A program made the translations under genes and the position numbers. A stretch of 46,495 nucleotides of DNA, from positions 1-46,495 of the IMG/VR virus record IMGVR_UViG_3300045988_032792; one strand, 5' to 3'. Positions 1-46,495 of the stretch are shown piece by piece. This DNA comes from a virus. The notes beneath the pieces are model-generated. The model made no database searches, was not told where the DNA came from, and was given only the letters and a program-made list of their open reading frames with translations. How positions within the stretch are numbered: position 1 is the stretch's first letter; each line of letters opens with the position of its first letter.

Positions 1-77
1 GGAAACGGACCAATGCAGATGATACAGCAGTTTATGCAGTTTAAGGAGAATTTTAAGGGAGATCCGAAAGCAGAAGT
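1..77 (+). repeat. Terminal direct repeat, identical to 46419..46495 (circular closure or terminal redundancy)
   Basis: Base-by-base comparison: ggaaacggaccaatgcag...ccgaaagcagaagt occurs at both ends. Confidence 0.97.
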
Positions 78-177
78 GCAGAAAATGCTACAGTCTGGGC
101 AGATTTCCCAACAGCAGCTTAACCAAGTTCAGCAGATGGCAGGGCAGTTTCAAAATCTGCTGAAAAATATGAAATAG
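1..177 (+). CDS. 3' part of junction-spanning Gln-rich small protein (73 aa; starts at 46374)
   Basis: Frame 1 is open from position 1 to TAG 175-177. It is in frame with ATG 46374 through the 77-bp overlap. Product: MSNPLFNALGGGMPQGNGPMQMIQQFMQFKENF...QQMAGQFQNLLKNMK. Confidence 0.6.
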   Translation, partial: GNGPMQMIQQFMQFKENFKGDPKAEVQKMLQSGQISQQQLNQVQQMAGQFQNLLKNMK

Positions 178-229
178 TACATTACAATCTGGCCAGATTG
201 ATGTAAATACAAAAAAGGAGATTATAACT

Positions 230-1006
230 ATGGATGGAAATTTAACAGCATCAGACGTTGCTCTTTTAACCGGGAACAACAGAAATGATGGAATGTTTGG
301 CGGAGATGCCATATTGCCGCTTATCGTACTTTTCTTGCTCGTATTTTTCGGATGGGGAAACAACGGCTGGGGCAATAATGGCAACGGTGGTGGATATACA
401 GCCACGGCAGCTACTCAGGCAGACATTCAGAGAGGATTCGATAACTCCGCAGTAATCAGCAAGCTTGACGGAATCAATAACGGCCTCTGTGATGGATTCT
501 ATGCAGTGAACAACGGTATGCTTACCGGATTCAACGGAATTAACACCAACATCATGCAGACTGGCTTTGGAATCCAGCAGGCAATCAATGCTGACACTGT
601 AGCCAATATGCAGAATACAAATGCGCTCCAGGCACAGCTCGCAAACTGCTGCTGTGAAACCAGGGAAGCAATCCAGGGTGTAAACTACAACATGGCACAG
701 AATACCTGTGCATTGCAGAACACCATAAACAGCAACACAAGAGATATCATTGATAACCAGAATACAAACATGAGGGCTATCTTAGATTATCTTTGCAATG
801 AAAAGATTTCTAGCTTGCAAGCTGAAAACAATGACCTTAGACGCGCCGCTTCTCAGGATCGCCAGAGTGCACTGATTACAGCTGAGCTGTCCGCACAGAT
901 ACAGCGGTTAACCAATACGCTCAATCCGGCACCAATCCCGGCATATCAGGTTCCAAACCCGAACACATATTACGGATGCGGATGCAACACCGGATGCAAT
1001 TGCTGA
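230..1006 (+). CDS. Membrane-anchored Asn/Gln-rich coiled-coil protein with Cys-rich C-terminus, function unknown
   Basis: 258-aa ORF with RBS aaaggag upstream. Contains a hydrophobic segment ILPLIVLFLLVFFGW, a GWGNNGWGNNGNGGG linker and the tail YYGCGCNTGCNC. Ends TGA TAA. Confidence 0.75.
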   Translation: MDGNLTASDVALLTGNNRNDGMFGGDAILPLIVLFLLVFFGWGNNGWGNNGNGGGYTATAATQADIQRGFDNSAVISKLDGINNGLCDGFYAVNNGMLTGFNGINTNIMQTGFGIQQAINADTVANMQNTNALQAQLANCCCETREAIQGVNYNMAQNTCALQNTINSNTRDIIDNQNTNMRAILDYLCNEKISSLQAENNDLRRAASQDRQSALITAELSAQIQRLTNTLNPAPIPAYQVPNPNTYYGCGCNTGCNC

Positions 1007-1069
1007 TAACTTCATATCGAGAGTATCTTTCGATTGATTCGAATGTCGGCTTATGCCGTATTACACAGA

Positions 1070-1095
1070 GGGGCAGGCTGAGACCTGTCCTTTTG
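1070..1095 (+). terminator. Weak intrinsic terminator/attenuator hairpin
   Basis: GGGGCAGG-ctgaga-CCTGTCC stem (one G-T wobble) followed by TTTT, between two co-oriented genes. Confidence 0.45.
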
Positions 1096-1116
1096 TGATA
1101 TGAAAGGAGTATTTTT

Positions 1117-1539
1117 ATGGCAGAATTTACAAATGTAGCTGCTCAGACTGTAGCAGCAAATGGAAACGTAGTATTTTCAAACACAGCAGTTAAAGGTTCT
1201 AACTGCATTCAGCACAGAGAAGGAAGCGGAATCATCACTCTGAGAGGACTGACTAACCAGTGCAAAGCGAGATTCTTTGTGGATTTTTCTGGCAATATCG
1301 CAATTCCAACAGGCGGTACTGTCGGAGCTATTTCTCTGGCTATTGCAATCTCTGGCGAACCGGTTCTTTCTTCTCAGATGATTTCCACGCCGGCAGCAGT
1401 AGACCAGTACAACAATGTGTCCTCTGGCATCTATATTGATGTACCTCGTGGATGTTGTGTTAATATCGCAGTAGAAAACACAAGCGAACAGGCTGTTTCT
1501 GTTGCGAACGCAAATATTGTCGTGACTAGAGAAGCGTAG
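1117..1539 (+). CDS. Small beta-rich protein with BclA C-terminal / C1q-TNF-like sequence pattern (putative)
   Basis: 140-aa ORF with RBS gaaaggag. Alternating hydrophobic beta pattern: NGNVVFS, GIITLRG, FFVDFSGNIAI, ISLAIAISG, NANIVVTR. Family assignment is by eye only. Confidence 0.7.
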   Translation: MAEFTNVAAQTVAANGNVVFSNTAVKGSNCIQHREGSGIITLRGLTNQCKARFFVDFSGNIAIPTGGTVGAISLAIAISGEPVLSSQMISTPAAVDQYNNVSSGIYIDVPRGCCVNIAVENTSEQAVSVANANIVVTREA

Positions 1540-1550
1540 GAGGTGCAGTT

Positions 1551-2114
1551 ATGAGAGATATTAAGGATTTATGCACAAGAATAGAGGACGAGCTTTCAAA
1601 AATCGCAGACAGCGGGCTGACCACCGGAAATCTGGAAATGACTTATAAGCTCATTGATATGTACAAAGATATCAAGAATACCCAGTACTGGGATAAAAAG
1701 GTGGAGTATTACAACGCTGTCCTTGATGAGATGCGAGGCGGATACAATGATGATTACAGCGAACGCGGAAGAAAACGCGACAGCATGGGGAGATACAGTC
1801 GTGGTGATGGAAGGATGATGTACCCGGATTATGATCGTGGCAGCTCTTACGATGATGGAAATCATAACTATGGATCCGCAAGAGGAAGCTACATTCGATC
1901 TGATGGAAGAGACACATATAACGACTACATGACGCAGAAGCAGAGTTATCGCTCCGGTAAATCTGAAGAGTGCAAAAGAAAAATGCTTGCAGCACTGGAA
2001 GAACACCTGGATGAGCTTACCACAGAAATGAGTGATATGTCTAAGGATGCAGAGTGCCGGGAGGAACGTGATCTTGTTAAAAGATACGTTGAAAAACTGA
2101 GAAATATGCTTTGA
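1551..2114 (+). CDS. Hypothetical protein with Arg/Asp/Tyr/Gly/Ser low-complexity core
   Basis: 187-aa ORF with RBS taggaggtg. Helical ends flank RGRKRDSMGRYSRGDGRMMYPDYDRGSSYDDGNHNYGSARGSY. Confidence 0.75.
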   Translation: MRDIKDLCTRIEDELSKIADSGLTTGNLEMTYKLIDMYKDIKNTQYWDKKVEYYNAVLDEMRGGYNDDYSERGRKRDSMGRYSRGDGRMMYPDYDRGSSYDDGNHNYGSARGSYIRSDGRDTYNDYMTQKQSYRSGKSEECKRKMLAALEEHLDELTTEMSDMSKDAECREERDLVKRYVEKLRNML

Positions 2115-2120
2115 TTCTTG

Positions 2121-2163
2121 CAAATGTGGGGACAACTTTTTTAAAAGAATGTGATATTATAAT
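2121..2163 (+). promoter_or_regulatory. Putative late promoter (conserved motif AAATGTGGGGACAA-N-TTTTT plus TATAAT)
   Basis: The 14-mer is shared with 39222-39235. The distance from the motif to the -10 hexamer (TATAAT 2158-2163) is identical to the second copy. Confidence 0.55.
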
Positions 2164-2441
2164 CTTGCAAGGCGTGGTGAACCTTGTAGGGACTGCTGAT
2201 TAAAAGTTTTTGCTTTCTTTTACATTTCATGTCCTCCTTTCTTTTTTGTGGATGTGCCCTTAATAGAAACAGATTCGAGCGGAATCTGGAGGTTGAAAAG
2301 CGGATGCAATTTCCGGCACATTCATTTACCATCGTGACTGGTGGTAACACCTCCTCGTAAATTAAATAAAATTTCCGCGAAAGTCGGATAGTGGCAGGCA
2401 TAACACGATAAATACCTTGCTAACCCGGGAATCCGGGTTAA

Positions 2442-2513
2442 TGGAATGTAGCTCAGTGGTAGAGCAGTAGCCTTATAAGCTATGTGCCGCAGGTTCGATT
2501 CCTGCCATTCCGA
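2442..2513 (+). tRNA. tRNA-Ile (anticodon UAU)
   Basis: Cloverleaf by eye. Acceptor TGGAATG/CATTCCG (U1-G72 wobble). D arm GCTC-AGTGGTA-GAGC. Anticodon arm GTAGC-CTTATAA-GCTAT. T arm GCAGG-TTCGATT-CCTGC. No encoded CCA. Confidence 0.8.
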
Positions 2514-2578
2514 TTATAGGTTTATCCTTATCCTGTGGACTGGAATTTAATCCAAATAGTCCCGAAAAGGTGTCTTCT

Positions 2579-2668
2579 GGGAAAGTGGCAACTATTGGCA
2601 GTGTTGCGGCGGTCTGTAAAACCGTTCCCTCGTGGTAAACATTATAGGTTCAATTCCTATCTTTCCCA
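2579..2668 (+). tRNA. tRNA-Tyr (anticodon GUA), long variable arm
   Basis: Acceptor GGGAAAG/CTTTCCC. Anticodon arm GCGGT-CTGTAAA-ACCGT. Long extra arm. T arm ATAGG-TTCAATT-CCTAT. Confidence 0.85.
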
Positions 2669-2733
2669 TGATTCAACATGTTGAAAAGGTTAACGCTTAT
2701 CCTGTTAACTGTTGGGCAGTTCGAAAAGCGCAG

Positions 2734-2806
2734 TGAAATATAGCGCAGTTGGTAGAGCAACATCCGCATAGGGTGCGTGTCGGCGGTTCGATTCCGCCTA
2801 TTTCAT
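2734..2806 (+). tRNA. tRNA-like gene with CAU anticodon (Met/Ile2-type) and non-canonical G33
   Basis: Perfect acceptor TGAAATA/TATTTCA. D loop AGTTGGTA. T arm GGCGG-TTCGATT-CCGCC. The anticodon arm ACATC-CGCATAG-GGTGC has an A27-C43 mismatch and G at position 33. Confidence 0.6.
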
Positions 2807-2883
2807 TACCTTGCCAGTGGTCTAACTGGCTTAATCCATTTACCTGCGGCGGCAGGTCAATAAACACGACCAGGAGGATATAT

Positions 2884-3516
2884 ATGCAGAAACTTATTGA
2901 CACATTAAAATCATTTGGAATTGAAATCCCGGAGGATAAACAAGCAGATGTGAAAAAGGCGCTTTCTGAGCATTATAAGAACGCCAAGGAAGTTGCAAAA
3001 ACTCTGTTAAAAGTTGAGGGAGAACGAGATAACTGGAAAGAACGTGCCGAGACAGCAGAGGAAACCTTGAAAGGGTTTGACGGTATCGACCCGGCGAACA
3101 TTCAGACAGAGCTTGCTGGATGGAAGAAGAAGGCTGAGGACGCAGAGAAAGAATTCAATGCGAAGATCTATGACCGCGATTTCTCAGACGCACTTAAAAC
3201 AGCACTTGATGATGTTAAATTTTCCAGTGAGGCTGCAAAGAAGTCAGTCATGGCAGACATCAAGGAAGCAGGATTGAAGCTAAAAGAAGGTAAAATCCTT
3301 GGTCTGAATGACTTGATCGAGCAAATGAAACAGACTGACGCATCCGCTTTTGTAGATGAATCTCAGCAGCAGGCTCAGCAGAATCAGGCAAGATTTACCA
3401 CTCATGTTGGGCAGCAGCAGACACCGGGAAACATGACGAAGAAAGATATTGAAGCAATCAAAGACCCGTCCGAGAGACAGGCTGCAATTGCTCAGAATAT
3501 CCAGTTATTCCAGTGA
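2884..3516 (+). CDS. Phage scaffolding protein
   Basis: ATG 2884 is preceded by caggagga. The track ORF 2749.. reads through tRNA-3 and is rejected. The product is charged and helical (MQKLIDTLKSFGIEIPEDKQ...) and lies directly upstream of the capsid gene. Confidence 0.8.
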   Translation: MQKLIDTLKSFGIEIPEDKQADVKKALSEHYKNAKEVAKTLLKVEGERDNWKERAETAEETLKGFDGIDPANIQTELAGWKKKAEDAEKEFNAKIYDRDFSDALKTALDDVKFSSEAAKKSVMADIKEAGLKLKEGKILGLNDLIEQMKQTDASAFVDESQQQAQQNQARFTTHVGQQQTPGNMTKKDIEAIKDPSERQAAIAQNIQLFQ

Positions 3517-3595: not shown

Positions 3596-4762
3596 ATGGC
3601 AGCAAAAGCTAATCTTATTATGACAAATGATATCCAGGTCACGGCACGTGAGATTGATTTCGTCACCAGATTCGAAAGAAACTGGGAGCACTTACGTGAG
3701 ATTCTGGGTATCATGAGACCTATCAAAAAACAGCCGGGTGCTGTACTCAAGTCCAAATACGCAGAGGGTACATTACAGAACGGAAATGTTGGCGAGGGCG
3801 AGGAAATCCCTTACAGCAAATTCGTTGTAAAAGAAAAGCCCTATGCAGAAATGACTATTGAGAAGTACGCAAAGGCTGTATCTATCGAAGCAATCAAGGA
3901 TCACGGTTACGAGAACGCCGTTCAAATGACTGATGATGAATTCCTTTTCCAGCTTCAGACCAATGTTACCGAAAGATTTTACAATTATTTGAAAACCGGT
4001 ACCCTCACATTTACAGAGATTACTTTCCAGATGGCTCTGGCAATGGCCAAGGGTCGTGTAGAAAACAAATTCAAGCAGATGCACAGAAATGTGACTGGTG
4101 TCGTTGGATTTGTGAACATTCTGGACGTGTACGAGTATATCGGAGCAGCCGATATTACTATTCAGAACCAGTTCGGATTCCAGTACATGAAAGACTTCCT
4201 GGGATTCAATACAATCTTCCTGTTATCTGACAGCGAAATCCCAAGAGGACAGGTTATCGCTACACCTGTTGAGAACATCGTTCTGTACTATGTAGACCCG
4301 AACGAATCAGACTTTGCAAGAGCAGGACTGGTGTATACCGTTTCCGGCGAAACAAACCTGATTGGATTCCACACACAGGGTAACTACCACACAGCAGTAT
4401 CTGAAGCGTTCGCAATCATGGGACTTACCCTCTTTGCAGAGTACATTGACGCTATTGCTGTTGGAACTATCAACACAACTCAGACACTTGGAACTCTCAC
4501 TGTAAACTCCGCAGCAGGAAGTAAAAGCGGAGATACAAAAGTGACTGTTACTCCGGCAAAAGCAAGCGCAGGAAATGCATATAAGTACAAAGTTGCATCA
4601 TCTGAGACTGCCGTAGACTACGGACAGAATGTGAAGAACTGGAGCGCGTGGGATGGAGAAGCCGACATTACAGCAACAACAGGACAGGTAATCACAGTGG
4701 TTGAGTGTGACAGCACCTATAAAGCACTGAGTGCCGGGCATGCGACTGTAACAGCAAAATGA
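3596..4762 (+). CDS. Major capsid protein with C-terminal Ig-like domain
   Basis: 388-aa ORF after the scaffold gene. C-terminal TLGTLTVNSAAGSKSGDTKVTVTPAKA...GHATVTAK resembles Big_2-type capsid-display domains. Confidence 0.9.
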   Translation: MAAKANLIMTNDIQVTAREIDFVTRFERNWEHLREILGIMRPIKKQPGAVLKSKYAEGTLQNGNVGEGEEIPYSKFVVKEKPYAEMTIEKYAKAVSIEAIKDHGYENAVQMTDDEFLFQLQTNVTERFYNYLKTGTLTFTEITFQMALAMAKGRVENKFKQMHRNVTGVVGFVNILDVYEYIGAADITIQNQFGFQYMKDFLGFNTIFLLSDSEIPRGQVIATPVENIVLYYVDPNESDFARAGLVYTVSGETNLIGFHTQGNYHTAVSEAFAIMGLTLFAEYIDAIAVGTINTTQTLGTLTVNSAAGSKSGDTKVTVTPAKASAGNAYKYKVASSETAVDYGQNVKNWSAWDGEADITATTGQVITVVECDSTYKALSAGHATVTAK

Positions 4763-5444: not shown

Positions 5445-5674
5445 ATATGAAATGCAGACAATGCGGGAAAGAACTTAAACCACATTGGAGCACAGATATT
5501 TGTATTGAGTGCTCAAGAGAAAATATGAAAAAGATATTTAGAAAAAACCCAGAAGTGAAACAGGCATTCCGTGAAACTATTGAAGAACTTAAAAAGCCTG
5601 AAAACATTGCGAAAATGGCTAAAAATACTGCCGGCTTTATGAGTGCTATTCAGGCATTAAGGAGTGATAAATAA
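5441..5674 (+). CDS. Small Zn-ribbon protein
   Basis: 77-aa ORF with CRQCG...CIEC motif. Start overlaps the upstream stop (ATGA). Confidence 0.6.
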   Translation: MNMKCRQCGKELKPHWSTDICIECSRENMKKIFRKNPEVKQAFRETIEELKKPENIAKMAKNTAGFMSAIQALRSDK

Positions 5675-5943
5675 TGGACATTTCAACATTAGGCTCATGT
5701 ATCGCAATCGTTATGATTTGCTACATCGTAGGAATGGGCTGTAAAGCATCAAAAAGAATCTCTGATGAATGGATTCCAGTAATCATGGCGGTTACTGGCG
5801 GGATTCTCGGAGCAGTCGGAATGGGAATTATCCCGGATTTCCCGGCAACGGATTATATCACGGCGGTTGCAGTCGGTATGTTTAATGGATTGTCAGCTAC
5901 CGGCGTGAATCAGATTATTAAGCAAAGTATTATGAAAGAGTGA
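5674..5943 (+). CDS. Holin-like membrane protein (Hol44 / LL-H-type pattern)
   Basis: 89 aa with 2-3 TM segments. Contains WIPVIMAVTGGILG and GLSATGVNQIIKQ, which resemble the phage holin superfamily V signature. Located in the head-tail module, not next to the lysin. Confidence 0.6.
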   Translation: MDISTLGSCIAIVMICYIVGMGCKASKRISDEWIPVIMAVTGGILGAVGMGIIPDFPATDYITAVAVGMFNGLSATGVNQIIKQSIMKE

Positions 5944-18017: not shown

Positions 18018-18138
18018 TTTACAACACCTCCTTAATAGGTTGATTATAGCATATTTTTAAAACATGTACCACGACTTTAACGAAGAATTACGCTCCTTAA
18101 TTTTGAGGGGCGCATCAAAACATGAAAGGAATGATATA

Positions 18139-19140
18139 ATGAGCAAATTACAGGAATTTTTAAACCTTGGTGATTATTACGCATCAAACGGCGGGTACCT
18201 TGAAAAGAAGAGTAACGCATATCTGGATGATTTTAAAAAGAATGCAGGATACAACAACTATACCAAATTTGCAAGAGATGTAAATAGTTGGGAACAGCCA
18301 GGATGCCAGGGGCAGCCGTGGTGTGCGGAGTACCAGTTTTGGAAATTGGTAAAAGTTCTTGGAATCACCAAAGCATTAAAGATCATGGGCGGAGGTTTTT
18401 ACAACTGCGTATCAATCACTAATCATGCTAAAACAAACGGAACTTGGCACAGCAAGCCAAAAGTCGGAGCACTTGTAATCTTTCGCAATGGCTCTCATGT
18501 TGGAAGTGTGCAGAGTTTTGACAGCTCAAAAATCTATACAAACGAAGGAAATACTTCTAGTGCAGCTGGCGTGGTGGCGAATGGTGGGGCAGTCCGAAAT
18601 AAGTCCTATTTAATCAGCGATTCTTCCATTGATGGATATGTTTGGATTGACTGGGACGAAACAGTACAGGAGACTTGGAAAAAGAAAGGAACCAGAGTAG
18701 CAACAGTAAATGATTTGTACGTCCGTGAAACACCGAATGGTTACGTTATTGGCTCAATCAATAAAGGAACCGTTGTTGAAACTGACGGAAAAACAAACGG
18801 AAAATGGACGCATATTAAAGTTTCCGGAATTGGTATCGGTTGGATCTGGACTGGATATCTTTCCAATAAATTCACTTCTGCTGCAGCTGCAATCACGAAC
18901 AAACAGGACAAGTCCCGGGTATTATTTTCCGGAAAAGTCACAGCTTCCGTTCTCAATGTCCGAACCTGGGCAGGAACGGAATACCCTCAGATAAAAAAAT
19001 ATCCTACTCTTAACAAATGGAATGAAGTAGAGATAATGAATTACACACAGAAAGCAAAGGACGGCACAAGCTGGTATTATATCCGAATTGCTGGAAAATA
19101 TTACGGATTTGTGTCCGCAAAATACATCCAGAAAATGTAA
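18139..19140 (+). CDS. Endolysin: CHAP peptidase/amidase domain plus two SH3-like wall-binding domains
   Basis: Catalytic-type motifs QPWCAEYQFW (Cys), GSHVG (His) and NEGNTS. Two C-terminal SH3_3-like repeats. The track start 18064 is possible, but ATG 18139 has the RBS aaagga. Confidence 0.85.
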   Translation: MSKLQEFLNLGDYYASNGGYLEKKSNAYLDDFKKNAGYNNYTKFARDVNSWEQPGCQGQPWCAEYQFWKLVKVLGITKALKIMGGGFYNCVSITNHAKTNGTWHSKPKVGALVIFRNGSHVGSVQSFDSSKIYTNEGNTSSAAGVVANGGAVRNKSYLISDSSIDGYVWIDWDETVQETWKKKGTRVATVNDLYVRETPNGYVIGSINKGTVVETDGKTNGKWTHIKVSGIGIGWIWTGYLSNKFTSAAAAITNKQDKSRVLFSGKVTASVLNVRTWAGTEYPQIKKYPTLNKWNEVEIMNYTQKAKDGTSWYYIRIAGKYYGFVSAKYIQKM

Positions 19141-19230: not shown

Positions 19231-19472
19231 ATTAGTCACATATTAGTCACAATATATAATCTTACAAACTTGCAAAAACCTTATAAATTCAGTATAATAG
19301 CCGCATGGACAAAAAAATTAGGATCAACAAATATTTAAGCAATATCAAATTTGTAAAACAGTTGATAAATCTTGTTTTTTCAGTATTTATGCGGGTTTCG
19401 AGATATTTCTTATTCCATTTTATTGTGACTAATTGCATATTATAATATTCTGATTAGTCACAATTAGTCACA
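19231..19472. repeat. attP region with five copies of ATTAGTCACA (putative integrase arm-type sites)
   Basis: Direct copies at 19231-40, 19242-51, 19453-62 and 19463-72. Inverted copy at 19424-33. AT-rich non-coding stretch next to int. Confidence 0.7.
19270..19298 (+). promoter_or_regulatory. Near-consensus sigma-70-type promoter reading antisense into int
   Basis: TTGCAA, 17 bp, TATAAT. An ATG lies 7 nt after the -10 (19305). Confidence 0.5.
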
Positions 19473-20629
19473 AACGGAACTTTTATTTTCTCAATCTCTG
19501 CGCAGAGTTCTTTCAATGTCCGGTGACCGTAAACAGAGTTTGTAACATCGCCGCCGAATGAATGCCCAAGCATTCTCTTACGGTCATTTTCCATGACTCC
19601 ATATTTTTCGCACAACATCGAAAACGTGTGCCTGCAATCATGCGGTGTATGCTTTGGATTCCCGATCATTCCTAACTTTTCTAAAGTTGGACAAAAGTAG
19701 CTTGCTCTGTAATGGTTTGTAGTGTAAGGAATCAAACATCCATAATGTTCGATCCTTGCTTTTACAAATTCATAAATGCATGAATGGATTGGCACAATTC
19801 TATTTTTTCCAAAATTTGTTTTTGATCCACCTCGAAAATATTTTTCTTTTAGATTTATTTCTAAATTTACCAATTCATTAATGCGCCAGCCGCTATAACA
19901 CATTATCAAAATCATCTGAACTTCTGGATCCGAAGAATGTTCCCAGAGTGTTTTAAGATTTTCTTCAGTAAAAGGGACTCCATGCTGATCGTCCTCACTT
20001 GCGGTAATTCGCAAATACTGGGATTTGTTGTCAGATACGATTTCCGCAAAAATTGCGTACTTGTACATCTGCTTGAATAAATTTAGGATTAATTCAATGC
20101 TTGCGTGCTTTAGGGGACAGTTGTCAAGAATTTCCTGCATTTCAGGGGCTTTCAAATCTTCAAAAATTCGTTCGTGGATTTTTTTACAATTTTTAAAGGC
20201 AGCAGCGTAATTTTGTTTTGAAGAGTTTGAAAGTTTTCCGTTTGAAAACTTCCAGTCCCAGAATTGTTCATATACCTCTGAAAACGTCAATTTCTTGATT
20301 TCCGGGTGTTTATCTTCTACACCCTTAATTGTATTGTAGTCTGCCAATATGCGGCTTAAAATGGTATCTGCGTCCGTTGTGGGGGCAATCTCCAATTCTC
20401 GCTCCATTCCAGGTTGATACGTTCCGGCTTTGTAAGCTGTGAGGACTGCAAAGCCCTTTACATAGTCGTCTACGTAGCAGATCGCAGGTGAACGGACAGT
20501 TTTGCCAAGCTCATTGACCTTCGCTGGTGGATGTACGGCATAGCAGTTCCTTCTTCCGGGACCTAAATATCTGATTGTACCGAAGCCTGCTGGTAGATTT
20601 GGGTATTTCTTTCTTTTCTTCTTCGCCAT
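19454..20629 (-). CDS. int: Tyrosine integrase
   Basis: C-terminal catalytic motifs HDCRHTF, LGH and VYGHRT. Start taken at MAKKKRKK (RBS gaagga) rather than the track start 20722. Confidence 0.9.
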   Translation of the reverse strand: MAKKKRKKYPNLPAGFGTIRYLGPGRRNCYAVHPPAKVNELGKTVRSPAICYVDDYVKGFAVLTAYKAGTYQPGMERELEIAPTTDADTILSRILADYNTIKGVEDKHPEIKKLTFSEVYEQFWDWKFSNGKLSNSSKQNYAAAFKNCKKIHERIFEDLKAPEMQEILDNCPLKHASIELILNLFKQMYKYAIFAEIVSDNKSQYLRITASEDDQHGVPFTEENLKTLWEHSSDPEVQMILIMCYSGWRINELVNLEINLKEKYFRGGSKTNFGKNRIVPIHSCIYEFVKARIEHYGCLIPYTTNHYRASYFCPTLEKLGMIGNPKHTPHDCRHTFSMLCEKYGVMENDRKRMLGHSFGGDVTNSVYGHRTLKELCAEIEKIKVPFVTNCD

Positions 20630-20762
20630 TTTATTCCTTCTTTCTTTTTGGTGAGAGTGTAGGTATAAAATAACAGTCGAACAAACTTTCCGGCTTGTAC
20701 GACTGTCCCGAAGATGATACAATATTCTTCGTCAAAAGATGATATCTCTTCAGAGGTATTCG

Positions 20763-39803: not shown

Positions 39804-41435
39804 ATGAATCTCACTCCTAAACAGAAAACGTTTGCAGATGAATATATAAAAAACGGTGGGAATGCATCTGACGCCGCAAGGAAAGCTGGATATAAAAATT
39901 ATGAAGTGGAAGGCTATAGATTGATAAGAAATGATAAGGTTTTATCTTATATAGCCGAAAAGCAGGATAAAATCGAGAAACAAAAATGTACCGATATCAT
40001 GTCTCTGGCAGAAATCCAACAGCGCCGTTCCATGATTGCAAGAGGTGAGCTAACGGATTCATTTGGCTTTGCTCCGGACTTCTCCGATCAGCTCAAATCC
40101 ATGAATGATCTGGAAAAGACACTTTCTATAAAAGAAGCCAGAGAAGAGCAGCGGAAAGCAGAAGAAAAAGCCAGATTACAAAGCGAATATCATATTGATC
40201 TGGATATTGTCCCGGACGTATTTCATAAAATGATTAGAGATATCCGGAAAAAGAAACATAGCGAATACATTCTCCCCGGCGGGCGTGGATCCATGAAGTC
40301 ATCGACAATATCATTGATTATACCGGAACTGCTGAAGAATAATTCGAACATGCACGCTCTGATTCTGCGAAAAGTCGGAAACACTATCAAAGATTCTGTT
40401 TATGCTCAGATGAAATGGGCTATTGATAAATTAAATCTAAATGAGGAATTTACGTGCAAGGTATCTCCTATGGAGATTACATATAAGCCTACTGGACAGA
40501 AGATATACTTTCGTGGTGCTGATGATCCATTAAAGATTAAATCCATAAAGCCGGAGTTTGGTTATATCGGCATCGTCTGGTTCGAGGAGCTTGACCAGTT
40601 CGCCGGGCCAGAAGAAATCCGTAATATCCAGCAATCTGCTATCCGAGGTGGAAATGAAGCATATAAGTTCAAATCGTTCAACCCGCCTAGGAGTAAGAAT
40701 AACTGGGCGAATGAATATACGGCAGAAGCAGAAGAAAAGGACGATAGCGCACTGGTTGTACATAGTACATATCTTGATCTTGACATTGAGCAGGAATGGC
40801 TCGGAGATATATTCCTTGCAGATGCTGAACATCTAAAAGAAGTAAATCCAGACGCTTATGACAACGAGTATTTAGGACACGCCAACGGAAATGGTGGAAA
40901 TATCTTTGAATACATCGAAGAAAGAACTATCACAGACGAAGAAATTAGTCACTTTGATAGAATTTATCAAGGTAATGACTGGGGATGGTTCCCGGACCCG
41001 TATGGATTTATCAGACTATATTATGATTCTGCCAGAGAAACGATATATTTCATTGACGAAATATATGAGAACAAGAGATCAAACGAATGGACCGCAAAAG
41101 AAATTAAACGGCGTGGCTACGATGATTACGCGATCACAAGTGATAGTGCAGAACCTAAGTCAGTAAATGATTACAGAGATTTCGGATTGCCTGCTAGACC
41201 AGCAATCAAAGGACCGGGAAGCATCGAATACTCTATGAAGTGGCTGCAAAGAAGAAAGCTTGTGTTTGACCCTGCTAGAACTCCGAACGCAAGGAAAGAG
41301 TTTAAGAAGTATGAATACGAGCGAGACAAAGACGGAAATATCATCAGTGGCTATCCGGATAAGGATAATCATCTGATTGACGCGACCAGATATGCTACAG
41401 AGTCAATGTGGATCAGAAGAGGTAATAGTGCATAA
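39804..41435 (+). CDS. Terminase: small-subunit-like DNA-binding N-terminus fused to PBSX-type large subunit
   Basis: Residues 1-125 are LTPKQKTFADEYIKNGGNASDAARKAGY (TerS-type HTH). They are followed by Walker A GGRGSMKSS, Walker B IVWFEELD, and nuclease motifs GNDWGWFPDP and DNHLIDATRY in one ORF. Confidence 0.88.
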   Translation: MNLTPKQKTFADEYIKNGGNASDAARKAGYKNYEVEGYRLIRNDKVLSYIAEKQDKIEKQKCTDIMSLAEIQQRRSMIARGELTDSFGFAPDFSDQLKSMNDLEKTLSIKEAREEQRKAEEKARLQSEYHIDLDIVPDVFHKMIRDIRKKKHSEYILPGGRGSMKSSTISLIIPELLKNNSNMHALILRKVGNTIKDSVYAQMKWAIDKLNLNEEFTCKVSPMEITYKPTGQKIYFRGADDPLKIKSIKPEFGYIGIVWFEELDQFAGPEEIRNIQQSAIRGGNEAYKFKSFNPPRSKNNWANEYTAEAEEKDDSALVVHSTYLDLDIEQEWLGDIFLADAEHLKEVNPDAYDNEYLGHANGNGGNIFEYIEERTITDEEISHFDRIYQGNDWGWFPDPYGFIRLYYDSARETIYFIDEIYENKRSNEWTAKEIKRRGYDDYAITSDSAEPKSVNDYRDFGLPARPAIKGPGSIEYSMKWLQRRKLVFDPARTPNARKEFKKYEYERDKDGNIISGYPDKDNHLIDATRYATESMWIRRGNSA

Positions 41436-41768: not shown

Positions 41769-43220
41769 ATGGGACTTATAACAACACTAAAAAGGTGGTT
41801 TAACATGATATTCAAAAAACAAGCCGAAGAGGACTTTAACATCCAGGCGGCAGAATTTCCAGAAATGGAATCACTGATTAACCGGTGCGCGAACATCTAT
41901 AGGGGAGTACCGGAATGGCTAGATGACAAGAATAACATCAAGACGATTAATTTTGCGAAATCTGTGTGTTCTGAGACTGCCAGACTTGCAACACTGGCGA
42001 TCGGCATTCAGATAGACGGTTCTGCAAGGGCAACATGGTTGCAGGAGCAGATTGACAAGGTGTATTTCCAAATACGTCACTGGGTAGAATATGGATGTGC
42101 TTATGGAACGGTATTCATTAAGCCGAACGGCGAGAGCCTTGACGTATTTACTCCGGCAGATGTGATGATTGTGGATTATGACAATCAGGAAATCAAAGGG
42201 ATTATATTCAAAGATTCTTATACTGTTGGACGGAAATACTACACAAGGCTTGAATATCACAGGTTTGTTGAGACAACAGTGGACGGAGTGACAACCTATC
42301 CGTATTATGTTTCAAACAGAGCCTATGTATCAAAATCTCCTCAAAACATCGGAGACAAGATTGACCTTAAACAGACCAAATGGGCTGACCTTATGGCAGA
42401 TACACCACCGATTCTTAAAGCAAACGGTGAGAAGCTGGACGGAGCTTTATACGGAGTACTTCGGACACCACAGGCAAATAATGTGGATATCAGTACACCA
42501 CTGGGGCTTCCAATATTTGCAGAAGCAATTGAAGAGTTGAAAGACCTGGACATTGCATACAGCCGTAATGCAAAAGAAATCCTTGATTCTAAGAGAACCG
42601 TTCTGGCGGATGATAGAATACTCATGCCGAGTGGATCACCAGTAGCAGCTATGACACCGCAGGCCATGGAGCACAGATGCAAAGAAATGAGTTTGCCGGA
42701 TTATGTGAAAAATGTATTCGGACAGGATGAAAAAGAGTTTTATCAGGAAATCAATCCGATTTTAAACACAGATACCCGTATAAGCGGCATAAATGCCCTT
42801 TTAAGCCAGTTGGGGTACAAGATTGGATTCTCCAATGGGTATTTTGTTTTTAACGAATCTAGCGGCATTCAGACAGCCACAGGAGTAGAAGCGGAACAGC
42901 AGAGGACAGTGCAGTTCGTCAAGGATGTAAGGGATAAGTTAGAGTCTTGCCTAGATGAAGTTATTTACGCATTGAACGTTTACGCTGACCTGTACGGGCT
43001 TGCACCGGTTGGGGCTTATGAAGTCAATTATGATTTCGGAGACATCCTATATGTGCGTGAAAATGACCGCGCAAGATGGTGGCAGTATGTGGCCACTGGC
43101 AAGATTCCGTTCTGGTACTATCTGGTAAAATTTGAAGGATTTAGCGAAGAGGACGCGAAAGCTCTCGCAGAAGAAGCGAATAAGGAAAACAAAGCAAGTG
43201 GATTATTTGGGGATGAATAG
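41769..43220 (+). CDS. Portal protein
   Basis: 483-aa ORF after the terminase gene and before the MuF-like gene. Size and position fit an SPP1-type portal. Confidence 0.85.
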   Translation: MGLITTLKRWFNMIFKKQAEEDFNIQAAEFPEMESLINRCANIYRGVPEWLDDKNNIKTINFAKSVCSETARLATLAIGIQIDGSARATWLQEQIDKVYFQIRHWVEYGCAYGTVFIKPNGESLDVFTPADVMIVDYDNQEIKGIIFKDSYTVGRKYYTRLEYHRFVETTVDGVTTYPYYVSNRAYVSKSPQNIGDKIDLKQTKWADLMADTPPILKANGEKLDGALYGVLRTPQANNVDISTPLGLPIFAEAIEELKDLDIAYSRNAKEILDSKRTVLADDRILMPSGSPVAAMTPQAMEHRCKEMSLPDYVKNVFGQDEKEFYQEINPILNTDTRISGINALLSQLGYKIGFSNGYFVFNESSGIQTATGVEAEQQRTVQFVKDVRDKLESCLDEVIYALNVYADLYGLAPVGAYEVNYDFGDILYVRENDRARWWQYVATGKIPFWYYLVKFEGFSEEDAKALAEEANKENKASGLFGDE

Positions 43221-43223
43221 CCT

Positions 43224-43655
43224 ATGAAGATTAATAATCATGTTGGAAATGTACATATCAAATTCGATACAAAGCGGATTGATGGCAATTTGAAAGAAGC
43301 GCAAACGAAACTGAATATGCAGATTGTAGCGGACTGCGAGCCTTATGTACCTTTCCAGCAAGGAGCATTGAGAAGTAGCGTAAGATACCCGCAGGGAATT
43401 GATGGTGGCGAGATTGAATATAATACTCCTTACGCTCATTATCTGTACACGGGCGAGGTATATGGTCCGAATATTCCGCTCAAGGATGCACAAGGCAATA
43501 TTATCGGATGGACATCTCCACCTAAAAAATCACCCACAGGGAGAAGATTACAATACCATACACCAGGAACGTCCGATCACTGGTTTGATCGTGCTAAGCA
43601 GGAACATCTATCTGATTGGGTGCGGCTTGTAAAAGAAACGGCAGGTGGTAAATAA
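43224..43655 (+). CDS. Minor capsid / HK97 gp10-like protein (putative)
   Basis: 143 aa. PYVPFQQGALRSSV...IEYNTPYAHYLYTGE pattern. Confidence 0.6.
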   Translation: MKINNHVGNVHIKFDTKRIDGNLKEAQTKLNMQIVADCEPYVPFQQGALRSSVRYPQGIDGGEIEYNTPYAHYLYTGEVYGPNIPLKDAQGNIIGWTSPPKKSPTGRRLQYHTPGTSDHWFDRAKQEHLSDWVRLVKETAGGK

Positions 43656-44905
43656 TGCTTCCACCAGAGTATTTCCACGGAAAAGAAAAAAGGATCCTTT
43701 CGATCTATCAGAAATTGGAAGATTTTATAATGACGGATATTTCCAGGCGTATTCTCCAGACTGGCAAAATGACTGCCACAGCTGATCGGCTTATCTGGAA
43801 ACTCACGCAAATGGGAGAAAGCAGAGCTGCCATTGAACAGAAACTGCAGAAGCTTACAAAAATGACACAGCCAGAACTTAGACGGATCCTGCAAAATGCT
43901 GTGATGACATCTTGGGATAATGATAAAGATATCCTTTTAGGGATTGATGAGAATATAAGTCCGCCGTTGGAAAATCCAGAAGTTATAGCGGTGATGGATG
44001 CAGAGTTTAAAAAGACATTGGGAGAGCTTAGTAACCTGAGTAGGACTACCATAAATCAATCTCAGCGTGATCTGATTAATCTGCTGGACAAAGCTGAAAT
44101 TCGTGTTACTTCCGGTGTGCAATCTTACACCTCTGCAATTTGTGATGTGTTGGACAACTATGCCAAAAAAGGAATTATGGTGGATTATCCAACAAGCGGT
44201 GCAAAAAGAACCCTTGAAGCAGCTGTGAGGTGCTGCGTGGTAACAAGTATGAACCAGACAGCGGCGCAGATCACTAATCAGTACATTGTGCAGGCAAAGA
44301 CAAATTACGTCCTCGTATCAGCCCATCTGGGAGCCAGAACAGCACAGAAAGGACAGCCGCCTTGCGGAGATCATTCATCCTGGCAGGGAAAGCCTTACTC
44401 AATAGTTGGATCGGAACCGGGATATCCTAATCTTTTGGAAAGCACTGGATATGATATAAGTCCGAAGACCGGACAGGGAACCGTTGTGGATCTGCATGGA
44501 CTGCATGGATATAACTGCCGTCACTCTCACCAACCATGGGCGAAAGGATTACGGAATCCCTGGGCGGATGAACACAAGATGGATTCTGAAGAAAATAAAA
44601 AGATCTATGAAGATACCCAGAAGCAGCGAGCAATGGAGCGTTCTATTAGAGCGACTAAAAGAAAGTTGATAATGAAGAATGAAGAAATCAACTCAGACGA
44701 TGTACCAGAATCTGAAAAAGAAAAACTAAGATCGGAATATGATCGAATGGCTTTTAAACTGACTGAACAGAATAAGGAGTATAATAAATTCTGCGAGGAA
44801 AACAATCTTGCAGCACAATATTACCGAAATAAGGTGGCAGACTTTGGATATAAGCAGCAGTCCAGGGCAAATGCCGGGGCAAAAAGATTTATGAGAGCAA
44901 AGTGA
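43655..44905 (+). CDS. Head morphogenesis protein (SPP1 gp7 / Mu F-like minor capsid protein)
   Basis: 416 aa. The GYNCRHSHQPW motif is typical of this family. Basic coiled-coil C-terminal extension. Confidence 0.85.
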   Translation: MLPPEYFHGKEKRILSIYQKLEDFIMTDISRRILQTGKMTATADRLIWKLTQMGESRAAIEQKLQKLTKMTQPELRRILQNAVMTSWDNDKDILLGIDENISPPLENPEVIAVMDAEFKKTLGELSNLSRTTINQSQRDLINLLDKAEIRVTSGVQSYTSAICDVLDNYAKKGIMVDYPTSGAKRTLEAAVRCCVVTSMNQTAAQITNQYIVQAKTNYVLVSAHLGARTAQKGQPPCGDHSSWQGKPYSIVGSEPGYPNLLESTGYDISPKTGQGTVVDLHGLHGYNCRHSHQPWAKGLRNPWADEHKMDSEENKKIYEDTQKQRAMERSIRATKRKLIMKNEEINSDDVPESEKEKLRSEYDRMAFKLTEQNKEYNKFCEENNLAAQYYRNKVADFGYKQQSRANAGAKRFMRAK

Positions 44906-44912
44906 GGTAACT

Positions 44913-45299
44913 ATGGACAGATGGGTGTGTTTCAATCCAAATCCGGTAAGAGGACAGCGTGTAGGAGACTGTGCTGTCCGGGCGATATGTAAGGCTTTAG
45001 ACCTTGACTGGGAAACGGTGTTTACCGGATTGATGGTACAAGCGTGTGCCTTATCCGATATGCCAAGTGCAAATTACGTATGGGGTTCATACCTGGCAAA
45101 GCAAGGATTCCATAGAAAGCTAGTGGAGCAGTCGGAGCGGTATATCTATACGGTGAATGACTTCTGTGCAGATCATCCGATCGGCACGTACATTCTCTGC
45201 ATAGATGGCCATGTGGTGACGGTACAAGACGGAAAATATTATGATACATGGGATTCCGGAAATGAAGTCCCGGTATATTACTGGGAAAGGAGCTTATAA
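44913..45299 (+). CDS. Putative papain-like / NlpC-P60-like cysteine hydrolase
   Basis: 128 aa. GDCAVRAI (Cys), IDGHVVTV (His) and YYDTWDSG (Asp) are spaced like a C-H-D triad. Confidence 0.5.
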   Translation: MDRWVCFNPNPVRGQRVGDCAVRAICKALDLDWETVFTGLMVQACALSDMPSANYVWGSYLAKQGFHRKLVEQSERYIYTVNDFCADHPIGTYILCIDGHVVTVQDGKYYDTWDSGNEVPVYYWERSL

Positions 45300-45301
45300 A
45301 A

Positions 45302-45607
45302 ATGAGCATACAGGAATTTATTCAATTTTTTCTTTCAGTCTGCGGAGGAATATCAATTTTTGGAGGGGCAGCAGCTGTAATCCTTAAGTGGATTGCTCCG
45401 GCATTCCGACTCAACAAGCGAGTTGAGACACTGGAAGAACATGATAAGCGAGACTATGAAAGTCTTCAAAGGATTGCTGAGAGAGATTCCCTTATCCTGG
45501 AAGTCCTATCAACCATGCTGGACAGTCAGATCAGCGGCAACAATGTGGAAGAATTAAAAAAAACAAAACAGAAGCTTACAAATTATCTTGCACAGAATCA
45601 GCGTTAA
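45302..45607 (+). CDS. Membrane-anchored coiled-coil protein
   Basis: 101 aa. N-terminal TM FIQFFLSVCGGISIFGGAAAVILKWIA. Confidence 0.6.
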   Translation: MSIQEFIQFFLSVCGGISIFGGAAAVILKWIAPAFRLNKRVETLEEHDKRDYESLQRIAERDSLILEVLSTMLDSQISGNNVEELKKTKQKLTNYLAQNQR

Positions 45608-45624: not shown

Positions 45625-45831
45625 ATGCTCATGAAATTATATGTGTTCACAAAGAAAGATATAGACAGATTCTTAGTAGAGTGTAATTTCACACCGGATG
45701 AAGAAAGATTGTTTCGGCTGAGATGCAAGGAATATACACTCGAATACTGTGCTGAACAGATGAACGTGAGTATATCCACGGCGAAACGATTGAGCCGGAG
45801 AGTAAACAATAAAATAATTAAAGTGTGCTGA
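45625..45831 (+). CDS. Small sigma-70 region-4 / LuxR-type HTH protein
   Basis: TPDEERLFRLRCKEYTLEYCAEQMNVSISTAKRLSRRVNNKI. The alternative start ATG 45631 has better RBS spacing. Confidence 0.65.
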   Translation: MLMKLYVFTKKDIDRFLVECNFTPDEERLFRLRCKEYTLEYCAEQMNVSISTAKRLSRRVNNKIIKVC

Positions 45832-45850: not shown

Positions 45851-45886
45851 AGAGCCAGAAACGACCTGTTTCCGGTTCTTTTTTTA
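45851..45886 (+). terminator. Rho-independent terminator
   Basis: AGAGCCAGAAAC-gacct-GTTTCCGGTTCT stem (12 bp, one mismatch) followed by a T run. Confidence 0.7.
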
Positions 45887-45919
45887 TGCAAAAATATAAT
45901 CAGAAAGGCGGTGTATAAA

Positions 45920-46381
45920 ATGGCATTATATAACAATCCTTATCAATATAGTTTCGGCGTTCCAGGACAGATGAACCAGTTCCAACAGCAACCTGTCCAG
46001 ATGCCAGCTCAACCAGTACAGCAGAATAATAATGGAATCCTGTGGGTATCTGGCGAAGTAGGCGCAAAATCTTATCTGGTAGCACCTGGAACAAGTGTTT
46101 TGCTGATGGACAGTGAAAGCGAAAAGTTCTACATAAAATCCACAGACGTTTCCGGTATGCCACAACCATTACGGACGTTTGAGTATCATGAAGTAGGCTC
46201 TCAGATGCCGCCTAAACAGCCTGTTCAGAACATGGAGAGTAAATACGTCACCAGACAGGAATACGACGATTTAAAGGGCAAATACGAAGCTATTATAAAC
46301 CGGTTAAATTCTTTTTCTGAACCTGTTAGGGCTAATACCGCGCAGGAATCAGCAGTCAAGGGAGGAAATGCAGATGAGTAA
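45920..46381 (+). CDS. Hypothetical protein with Gln/Pro-rich N-terminus and beta-rich core
   Basis: ATG 45920 after gaaaggcgg (track GTG 45911 is possible). Product MALYNNPYQYSFGVPGQMNQFQQQPVQMPAQPVQQNNNGILWVSGEVGAKSY... Confidence 0.7.
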   Translation: MALYNNPYQYSFGVPGQMNQFQQQPVQMPAQPVQQNNNGILWVSGEVGAKSYLVAPGTSVLLMDSESEKFYIKSTDVSGMPQPLRTFEYHEVGSQMPPKQPVQNMESKYVTRQEYDDLKGKYEAIINRLNSFSEPVRANTAQESAVKGGNADE

Positions 46382-46495
46382 TCCATTATTTAACGCACTT
46401 GGCGGTGGGATGCCGCAGGGAAACGGACCAATGCAGATGATACAGCAGTTTATGCAGTTTAAGGAGAATTTTAAGGGAGATCCGAAAGCAGAAGT
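46374..46495 (+). CDS. 5' part of junction-spanning Gln-rich small protein (continues at 1..177)
   Basis: ATG overlaps the upstream stop (ATGAGTAA). The ORF is open to the window end and in frame with position 1. Confidence 0.6.
   Translation, partial: MSNPLFNALGGGMPQGNGPMQMIQQFMQFKENFKGDPKAE
46419..46495 (+). repeat. Terminal direct repeat, identical to 1..77
   Basis: Base-by-base identity with the window start. Confidence 0.97.

Follow-up and report, generated by a model that had tools for sequence, protein, structure and literature searches.

A syntenic accessory operon of gut and rumen tailed phages with a predicted stand-alone BclA-type jelly-roll protein

Three open reading frames (ORFs) between the MuF-like gene and the scaffold gene of the virus record IMGVR_UViG_3300045988_032792 raise the question of what they encode and whether they belong to the phage head or to the surface of the bacterial host. 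The window, meaning the whole stretch of 46,495 nt that was analysed, is a circular assembly of a temperate siphophage genome; coordinates marked plus are on its plus strand. Positions 46419-46495 are identical to 1-77, and from this terminal repeat of 77 nt at the window ends it follows that the window was assembled as a circle. The initial annotation described a three-gene cassette with features of spore coat and exosporium proteins. The present analysis shows that the three genes, here P1, P2 and P3, are the 3' half of a six-to-eight-gene syntenic accessory operon of gut and rumen Firmicutes tailed phages. All three are well-initiated ORFs at the positions first given, on the plus strand and with an AGGAG-type ribosome-binding site before each:

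230-1006, plus strand: P1, 258 amino acids, matching phrog_16490 (E-value, E, 1.5e-54)
1117-1539, plus strand: P2, 140 amino acids, matching phrog_20016 over its full length
1551-2114, plus strand: P3, 187 amino acids, matching phrog_28802 (E 1e-56)

The PHROG matches are full-length family matches with E between 1e-54 and 1e-61, and all carry the label 'unknown function'. A search of a database of 5.8 billion proteins gave at least 7998 matches (clusters) for P1 and at least 7954 for P2 among 8000 scored candidates, a number at which both searches were saturated. P1 and P2 are present in hundreds of human-gut and rumen viral contigs. P1, P2 and P3 are real conserved genes and not chance ORFs.

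Searches with the window proteins (tblastn) showed that ORFs upstream of P1 travel together with P1-P2-P3 in unrelated phages. The unit is larger than three genes, as four of the five genes between MuF and P1 co-travel with P1-P2-P3 in other phages. The upstream features are:

44913..45299, plus strand: M0, 128 amino acids, matching phrog_3754 (E 1e-35); the first conserved gene of the module
45302..45607, plus strand: a 101-amino-acid protein between M0 and SIG, with an N-terminal transmembrane segment followed by a coiled coil
45631..45831, plus strand: SIG, 66 amino acids, with a helix-turn-helix of sigma-70 region-4 / LuxR-GerE type, matching phrog_1190 'RNA polymerase sigma factor' (E 1.9e-6)
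45853..45885, plus strand: a terminator-like GC hairpin followed by seven T, between SIG and M1, from sequence and fold
45920..46381, plus strand: M1, matching phrog_21718 (E 4e-38)
46374..46495, plus strand: N-terminal part of M2, a gene that crosses the window junction
1..177, plus strand: C-terminal part of M2, continuing across the circular junction

Hidden Markov models (HMMs) of the families were scanned over 184 loci, which were collapsed to 73 P2 clusters at 90% identity. The loci come from few phage groups and the HMMs were partly built from the same loci; the counts describe this sample and not all phages, and many of the absent module members correspond to contig ends. The dominant order is (SIG) M0 M1 M2 P1 P2 P3 (G7) on one strand, with median intergenic gaps of -8 to +64 nt. 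P1 was found directly upstream of P2 in 72 of the 73 P2 lineages. P3 or a long form, P3L, was present in 69/73, M1 or a variant, M1b, likewise in 69/73, M0 in 65/73 and M2 in 63/73, while a SIG match upstream of the module was found in 49/73 and a seventh gene (G7) in 30/73. The two halves are swapped in two loci, giving P1 P2 P3 ... M0 M1 M2. Whether the trio co-occurs in other phages had been named as a check by the initial annotation; it does, P1-P2-P3 being syntenic across many lineages. The 101-amino-acid protein is about 91% identical in window-like loci and is specific to the window lineage, outside the widely conserved core. A literature search, incomplete in its coverage, gave no paper describing the operon or its families.

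Foreign genes interrupt the module in some loci. An HNH-like gene is inserted between P2 and P3 in Ceridwen (L001 6518-7312), an AntA-domain gene between P1 and P2 in L098 (9134-9922) and an integrase between SIG and M1b in Dulem virus 39 (L002 2518-3861). The gene after P3 in modules with a long P3 encodes about 105-110 amino acids with a HELCH (HExxH) zinc-protease-like motif (L007 7118-7450, L008 7361-7684, L002 7241-7558, L097 11130-11450), and a gene annotated 'PolyVal metallopeptidase' is found a few genes downstream of P1 in the Bacteroides phage. The 3.3-kb contig L009 (ONYG01000072.1), which carries P1-P2-P3L, was assigned to 'uncultured Methanobrevibacter sp.'; most likely it is a piece of phage DNA placed in the wrong bin.

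The position of the operon varies between phages. In the window and in Dulem virus 35 it is found after MuF and before the scaffold gene. Elsewhere it is found downstream of an endolysin or holin gene (Ceridwen, Dulem virus 33 and Bajarodcaudo virus 5); immediately ahead of an integrase and a repressor on the reverse strand in Dulem virus 33 and L264; after the integrase in Dulem virus 39; at the very edge of the prophage, adjoining host genes and upstream of ArdA, in a Eubacterium ramulus prophage and a related contig; convergent to tail genes in L095; after tail proteins in L093; and before a giant polyvalent protein in L094. Linkage to the gene for the major capsid protein (MCP) fails, the module being remote from capsid genes in Ceridwen, Dulem viruses 33 and 39, L095, L097, L098 and L264. 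Among 80 closely related viral contigs (L011-L090) MuF is about 34% identical (median) whereas M0 through MCP are 82-98% identical, which places a mosaic breakpoint at the boundary between MuF and M0 (43655-44905 against 44913 onward). The differing position and this breakpoint together show a portable accessory unit and not a fixed component of head morphogenesis, and the operon is an autonomous, horizontally mobile unit. The original cassette boundaries and the placement inside a head-morphogenesis module are therefore too narrow and in part incidental. The genes do lie between the MuF-like and scaffold genes, but five genes precede P1, and a RAGATH-21 RNA and three transfer RNAs (tRNAs) follow P3.

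The hairpin between P1 and P2, first given as weak and at 1070-1095, is strong. It covers 1057-1102 at -24.9 kcal/mol (z = -4.57), and none of 200 shuffles folds as well. It is not a canonical terminator because the U-run is paired inside the 3' arm. The median gap between P1 and P2 elsewhere is 19 nt, so that most lineages have no room for the hairpin. A promoter and terminator scan of positions 1-3000 gave signals that were not above chance.

The structure of P2 was predicted by AlphaFold2 from a 76-sequence alignment as all beta, with a jelly-roll from residue 2 (predicted local distance difference test, pLDDT, 97.9; predicted template modelling score, pTM, 0.90). Foldseek against PDB gave 110 matches at E <= 1e-3, the top hits (9h38, 1wck, 8d02, 7r1m and 1rj7) with template modelling scores (TM-scores) of 0.68-0.77, and all top matches are trimers. 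The best match is the C-terminal domain of F-BclA (9h38, E 5e-8, TM-score 0.72-0.76), accompanied by the C-terminal domain of BclA (1wck, 2z5w and 3twi, about 0.7), BxpB (8d02, 0.72) and ExsFA (7r1m and 9h3d, 0.75-0.77). EDA, C1q, cerebellin and 4-1BBL rank lower, as do two cyanophage fibre or tail entries (8ke9, 9k09). Sequence identity to the solved structures is only 10-14%. The best matches in BFVD are stand-alone proteins of 130-143 amino acids from uncultured gut sipho-, myo- and podoviruses (TM-score 0.8-0.9), one of them named 'BclA protein', and collagen/C1q proteins of giant viruses rank next. The beta motifs quoted for P2 in the initial annotation were found as described, and its comparison of 1117-1539 with the BclA C-terminal / C1q-TNF jelly roll is borne out by this model and its nearest structures.

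At the level of sequence, the Pfam family BclA_C (PF18573) matches nine of the 76 aligned members of the P2 family (best E 2.3e-10) and does not match the P2 of the window at E <= 1. The membership of the family in BclA_C is accordingly by transitive homology, since the window protein has no Pfam match of its own; searches of Pfam, NCBIfam and PDB sequences with it gave none. Clustering at 50% identity gives 699 representative clusters of the family, and almost all are stand-alone proteins some 135-160 amino acids long. In P2 a GCC doublet is conserved and a signal peptide is lacking. It matches neither the exosporium leader (TIGR03720) nor a collagen profile, and does not have the architecture of a BclA-type filament. 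On the predicted structure P2 is a divergent stand-alone member of the BclA_C / TNF-C1q group, a new subfamily of a known fold.

The C-terminal domains of BclA and F-BclA are the knobs of collagen-like filaments on the Bacillus exosporium and on F-ENA fibres. P2 is like them in its predicted jelly-roll, in size, in TM-score (0.68-0.76 over about 140 residues) and in that neither has a signal peptide. It differs in being stand-alone, without exosporium leader or collagen GXY stalk, in the GCC doublet and in being encoded by phages, one of them a phage of a non-spore-former. In the basal layer of the exosporium, ExsFA/BxpB forms a stand-alone TNF-like trimer on which the Pro-rich leaders of BclA and F-Anchor dock. 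P2 is like this protein in being a stand-alone TNF-like domain of similar length (7r1m, 9h3d and 8d02; TM-score 0.72-0.77), and the Pro-rich ligand of ExsF resembles the PxPIPAY tail of the adjacent P1. The differences are that no sequence homology between P2 and ExsFA/BxpB is detectable and that the partner of P2 is predicted to be helical with a hydrophobic anchor, and not a collagen-like filament.

P1 is, as judged from its sequence, the core family of the module, in which a putative hydrophobic anchor at the N-terminus is combined with long helices and with Cys and Pro motifs that do not vary. The hydrophobic segment comprises residues 27-43, has Gly, Trp and Asn on both sides and is followed by a Gly-rich linker. 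The linker leads into an Asn/Gln-rich helical region with an invariant Q...CCC(E/D), of which the CCC is at residues 140-142. The C-terminus contains an invariant PxP(I/V)P(A/S)(Y/F/W), in the window protein PxPIPAY at 235-239, and then a Cys cluster of GCGC type. The motifs quoted earlier for P1 (GGDAILPLIVLFLLVFFGWG, GWGNNGWGNNGNGGG, the CCC at 140-142 and the YYGCGCNTGCNC tail) are all present. AlphaFold2 (25-sequence alignment) gave a pLDDT of 41.8, so that the model can be read for secondary structure only: helices at 28-40, 73-127 and 144-231, with the CCC in the break between the two long helices and the tail disordered. Searches of Pfam and NCBIfam (E <= 1) and of PDB with P1 gave no match. 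The likeness of 230-1006 to YjcZ-type sporulation peptides is compositional only, there being no Pfam or NCBIfam match at E <= 1 to a protein of 258 amino acids with a 200-residue helical domain.

Homologues of P1 were found in Firmicutes phages, in Bacteroides phage C3_41T2LP, in Clostridium perfringens phage XP41-N3 and in the crAss-like phages cr109_1 and cr53_1. For the crAss-like homologues the annotations read 'outer capsid protein/viral fiber' and 'spike protein/glycoprotein', which we take as a sign of coiled-coil resemblance and not of function. The only PADLOC result for the module proteins is a 13-bit match of P1 to the GajB coiled coil. Upstream of P1 in cr53_1 lies gp67 (L262 3000-3635), annotated 'sigma factor/ubiquitin-like'. 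R, G, Y, D and E are frequent in the C-terminal half of gp67, a composition like that of the P3 core, and the protein matches neither the SIG nor the P3 HMM.

In phages without P2, P1 and M1 (sometimes with SIG) are followed by unrelated beta-rich proteins. Bajarodcaudo virus 5 and XP41-N3 share one partner family, whose N-terminus carries a Cys-rich motif such as CNRRCNCC; a second is found in the Bacteroides and crAss-like phages. Comparison of the P2 profile with the second genes of the crAss-like, Bacteroides and C. perfringens phages (hhalign) gave no similarity, and the alternative partners have no match in Pfam. Every partner carries a Cys doublet (GCC, NCC, GCGGC or KCC), and P1 carries CCC and GCGC; these residues may link P1 to its partner. 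Conserved Cys clusters are found in P1, P2, P3 and M0.

P3 begins and ends with helical regions, between which lies an R/G/Y/D/S-rich disordered core with a motif of the type RRDSMGRYSR. In the window protein this core is 75 residues long and includes 12 R, 11 G, 11 Y, 11 D and 10 S, the composition described earlier, and the whole protein has an isoelectric point of 5.3. Homologues are found in Ceridwen, Dulem viruses 33, 35 and 39, L010 and L093-L095, some of which were missed by tblastn, and three Cys are common to P3 and its homologue in Dulem virus 35. P3 has no match in Pfam or NCBIfam (E <= 1) or in PDB, and there are no tandem repeats in 1551-2114; the likeness to CotG-type coat proteins that had been suggested is therefore one of composition only.

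In M0, an alignment of seven homologues has NPNP, D19-C20, H100 and D111-W113 invariant. M0 may be a papain-like Cys-His-Asp protein, with a catalytic role suggested by the order of the motifs alone; it has no match in Pfam, NCBIfam or PDB sequence searches. M1 is listed as an ORF from GTG at 45911, and the ribosome-binding site belongs to the ATG at 45920. Its N-terminus is rich in Q, P and Y and is followed by a small beta domain (WV.GE.GAK.Y.V, Y.KS.D.SGMP), with a helix at the C-terminus; a PDB sequence-profile search with M1 gave no match. M2 is a helical protein of 73 amino acids encoded by 46374-46418 and 1-177, rich in Gln (22%) and Met (11%), and matches phrog_22984 over its full length (E 8e-27). 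It looks truncated in a linear ORF list, as the gene crosses the junction. By sequence comparison P1, P3, M0, M1 and M2 appear to be without characterised relatives. SIG is a candidate for a dedicated regulator of the module.

The reading that we tentatively prefer, at somewhat less than even probability, is that the operon encodes an accessory adhesion or fibre structure, carried by the virion or released at lysis, with the form of an anchor, stalk and knob, and not a spore coat. The module products would assemble in the cytoplasm during the lytic cycle; cytoplasmic assembly is proposed because they have no signal peptides. An N-terminal hydrophobic segment is found in P1 only among the module products. 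P1 would be an oligomeric, probably trimeric, helical stalk whose hydrophobic N-terminus holds a membrane or the particle, and the CCC and GCGC clusters would lock the chains to each other or to the partner protein, giving a cysteine-linked, 'nap-like' complex. Neighbouring Cys residues can knot chains together, as they do in collagen III. P2 would be a trimeric knob, likely a binder of glycan or protein, and may dock on the Pro-rich tail of P1 as ExsF docks the exosporium leader peptide. In the ExsF trimer, the clefts where subunits meet hold a leader peptide rich in Pro, ...LPPIYIPTG (PMC12357932), and by analogy the invariant PxPIPAY of P1 is a plausible counterpart of this peptide. P3, M1 and M2 may be low-complexity cement or chaperone components, and M0 a papain-like enzyme for processing or cross-linking. 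The exchange of partners between lineages fits a modular distal element, and the full module in the apparently virulent Ceridwen was counted for a function in the lytic cycle.

Compared with the known stalk-and-knob fibres of viruses (reovirus sigma1, the PRD1 P5 spike and adenovirus fibre), the module would have a similar architecture of anchor, long stalk and TNF-like knob, and TNF-like phage fibre tips such as 8ke9 are among the structural matches of P2. The differences are that stalk and knob are separate polypeptides, that the N-terminus resembles a transmembrane segment, that the gene position is unlinked to tail or head genes and that a place in the virion and receptor binding are putative for the module. 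As proposed, the module is like stalk-and-knob filaments in general (BclA, C1q and viral fibres), but with separate polypeptides and a transmembrane-like anchor.

Several observations weigh against the anchor-stalk-knob structure. The P1 model is of low confidence (pLDDT 41.8) and the oligomeric state of P1 is assumed; the contacts among P1, P2 and P3 and their presence in the virion are putative. The hydrophobic segment of P1 resembles a transmembrane helix, and its flanks are nearly uncharged, so that the positive-inside rule gives no topology. The PxPIPAY motif and Cys tail of P1 are identical whichever type of partner follows, and a tail of this constancy cannot account for the choice of partner. 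Across four closely related GenBank records the identity is 98-99% for P2, against 76-89% for P1 and 87-90% for P3, a comparison limited to the four records of a nucleotide search, the 80 IMG/VR loci having been dropped as selected by P2 identity; P2 changes more slowly than P1 and P3, unlike a fast-evolving receptor-binding tip. In anaerobes, the conserved Cys of proteins in the cytoplasm could serve as metal ligands instead of forming disulfides. The module lies in early or DNA-metabolism regions of C. perfringens phage XP41-N3 and the Bacteroides phage, and adjoins ArdA at the edge of the E. ramulus prophage, both of which are unusual places for virion genes. The main uncertainty of the model is where the complex acts.

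A second explanation, possible though on the unlikely side, places the action at the membrane of the infected cell late in infection, as an accessory to lysis or its timing, in membrane remodelling, or as a block to superinfection or to the loss of progeny on debris. P1 would then be a true membrane protein acting with cytoplasmic partners, and P2 a cell-wall glycan binder freed at lysis. It would account for the transmembrane-like segment of P1 and for a module position unrelated to that of the structural genes. Holin or endolysin genes are found no more than a few kb from the module in Ceridwen, Dulem virus 33, Bajarodcaudo virus 5, cr109_1, cr53_1 and L010, the order in the crAss-like phages being holin, LysB/FtsL-like, ..., P1, and further genes for transmembrane and coiled-coil proteins adjoin it (window 45302-45607, L093 8193-8501). 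The adjacency to lysis genes is weak evidence, however, as the end of the late operon is a usual place for unrelated accessory genes. P1 is like the spanins and LysB/FtsL-like lysis accessories in its N-terminal transmembrane-like segment, long predicted helices, conserved Cys, Pro-rich end and frequent proximity to holin genes. The module is unlike them in that the host clade of the window is monoderm and needs no spanin, in the absence of a lipoprotein partner or profile match and in its much larger size. There is no PADLOC or lysis-family profile match, and seven low-complexity, Cys-rich proteins exceed known lysis-accessory or exclusion systems. As single candidates, a spanin was rejected for the monoderm host, the missing lipoprotein partner, the absence of a profile match and the absence of a lipobox in P2 and P3; a holin because no module protein gave a profile match and the window has a separate Hol44 gene at 5674-5943; and a defence system because PADLOC gave no support.

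Lysogenic conversion, in which the products are expressed from the prophage and placed in the exosporium, coat or another surface layer of the lysogen under a GerE- or sigma-like regulator, is improbable. The nearest structures to P2 are the exosporium proteins BclA, F-BclA, ExsFA and BxpB, the products have no signal peptides, like proteins assembled in the mother cell, and a small region-4/GerE-type helix-turn-helix gene lies upstream. The Cys-, Q- and R/Y/S-rich compositions and the papain-like enzyme recall ExsY/CotY, GerQ/Tgl and CotG/ExsB, in composition only. Hosts are Lachnospiraceae and Clostridia, and in temperate phages of Clostridia the module adjoins int/attP or the prophage edge. 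The module is also like the Cys-cross-linked spore assemblies of the cytoplasm (ENA fibres and the ExsY/CotY lattice) in the absence of signal peptides, in beta-sandwich subunits and in Cys-Cys motifs; it differs in having no significant Enas, DUF4183 or CotY profile match, in hosts that include non-spore-formers and in disulfides that are putative. Butyrivibrio, including B. fibrisolvens, is regarded as a non-spore-former, and the complete module is found in Ceridwen on this host. For Butyrivibrio virus Ceridwen only a lytic cycle was observed, and its authors judged it virulent (PMC7372960). Virulent crAss-like and Bacteroides phages carry P1 together with partners of M1-like and other kinds, viral fibres that have nothing to do with spores commonly show the TNF/C1q fold, and the module of the window lies inside the late region. 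No YjcZ, CotG, ExsY or exosporium-leader profile match was found, and YjcZ and CotG identities were rejected for want of a profile match and of tandem repeats. The early suggestion of a module acting on the host spore is consequently disfavoured, given the whole module in a phage judged virulent, on a host regarded as non-sporulating, and P1 in Bacteroides and crAss-like phages.

That P1-P3 are stoichiometric head components (decoration, cement or internal proteins) of the head-morphogenesis module is very improbable. The position between MuF and scaffold/MCP in the window and Dulem virus 35 would suit it, as would the fact that window-like phages keep the module linked to scaffold and MCP while MuF is replaced; one locus adjoins a giant polyvalent protein, of a kind that is packaged into heads. 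Most other lineages have the module far from the capsid genes or on the opposite strand, however, no match to known decoration, cement or internal-protein families was found, and the module has an apparent regulator and a terminator-like hairpin of its own. We give almost no credence to a bacteriocin-like system, in which M0 as a C39-type double-glycine peptidase would cut leaders of M2 and/or P1 to free Gly-rich membrane-active peptides: to our reading the motifs around the Cys and His of M0 resemble C39 peptidases, FGG stands just before the P1 segment and LGGG near the M2 N-terminus, and the Gly-rich hydrophobic segment is like class II bacteriocins, but there is no C39 or bacteriocin profile match (M0 and P1 at E <= 1, M2 at E <= 0.1), the putative leaders depart from the double-glycine consensus at -4, -7 and -12, an ABC exporter and an immunity gene are lacking and the conserved 200-residue helical domain of P1 would be unexplained.

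The surrounding genome of the window contains the following annotated genes:

39804-41435, plus strand: TerL
41769-43220: portal
43655-44905: MuF-type minor capsid protein
2884-3516: scaffold
3596-4762, plus strand: MCP
5674-5943, plus strand: Hol44 holin
18064-19140, plus strand: CHAP/SH3 endolysin
19454-20722, minus strand: integrase

The ORF at 39804-41435 (543 amino acids) combines a Terminase_2 small-subunit domain (residues 3-107) with Terminase_3 and Terminase_3C large-subunit domains, which suggests a fused TerS-TerL or a missed gene boundary. The Hol44 gene lies among genes for head-tail connectors, with some 12 kb between it and the CHAP/SH3 endolysin gene, and likewise in Dulem virus 35. 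At its C-terminus MCP carries an Ig-like SbsC_C domain of S-layer type (residues 307-387, PF18316, E 8.8e-14), which may be a built-in surface decoration. Between the P3 stop and the tRNAs lies a RAGATH-21 RNA (Rfam RF03097) at 2249-2324 on the plus strand, with 93.3 bits against a gathering score of 70.3; no ribozyme family was above threshold anywhere in the window. The tRNAs at 2442-2513, 2578-2669 and 2733-2807 (plus strand), between the module and scaffold, are Ile (anticodon TAT), Tyr and Met. Of the Ile codons, ATA accounts for 25% in ten large phage genes and for 11% in the cassette.

The analysis turns three anonymous ORFs into a defined and testable operon, with the core family P1, the P2 knob of predicted fold, an apparent regulator and a cultivable representative, Ceridwen (B. 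fibrisolvens DSM 3071). Should the anchor-stalk-knob complex hold, it would be a new accessory structure of gut phages, tied to BclA and ExsF. A broader version, which we regard as clearly unlikely, is that the operon is a portable kit of a new kind, carried by tailed phages from Lachnospiraceae siphophages to crAss-like phages, for a secretion-free, covalently cross-linked, exosporium-like 'nap' that is built in the cytoplasm of the infected cell and coats virions or lysis debris under the control of SIG. Its parts would be P1 as a Cys-knotted, anchored stalk, an exchangeable knob, P3, M1 and M2 as cement and M0 as cross-linker. If so, the 'nap' would alter the persistence or adhesion of phages in the gut, and it would imply that spore-surface filaments and phage appendages are linked in evolution. 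Should the anchor-stalk-knob model fail, the operon would still be among the more widespread unexplained modules of gut phages.

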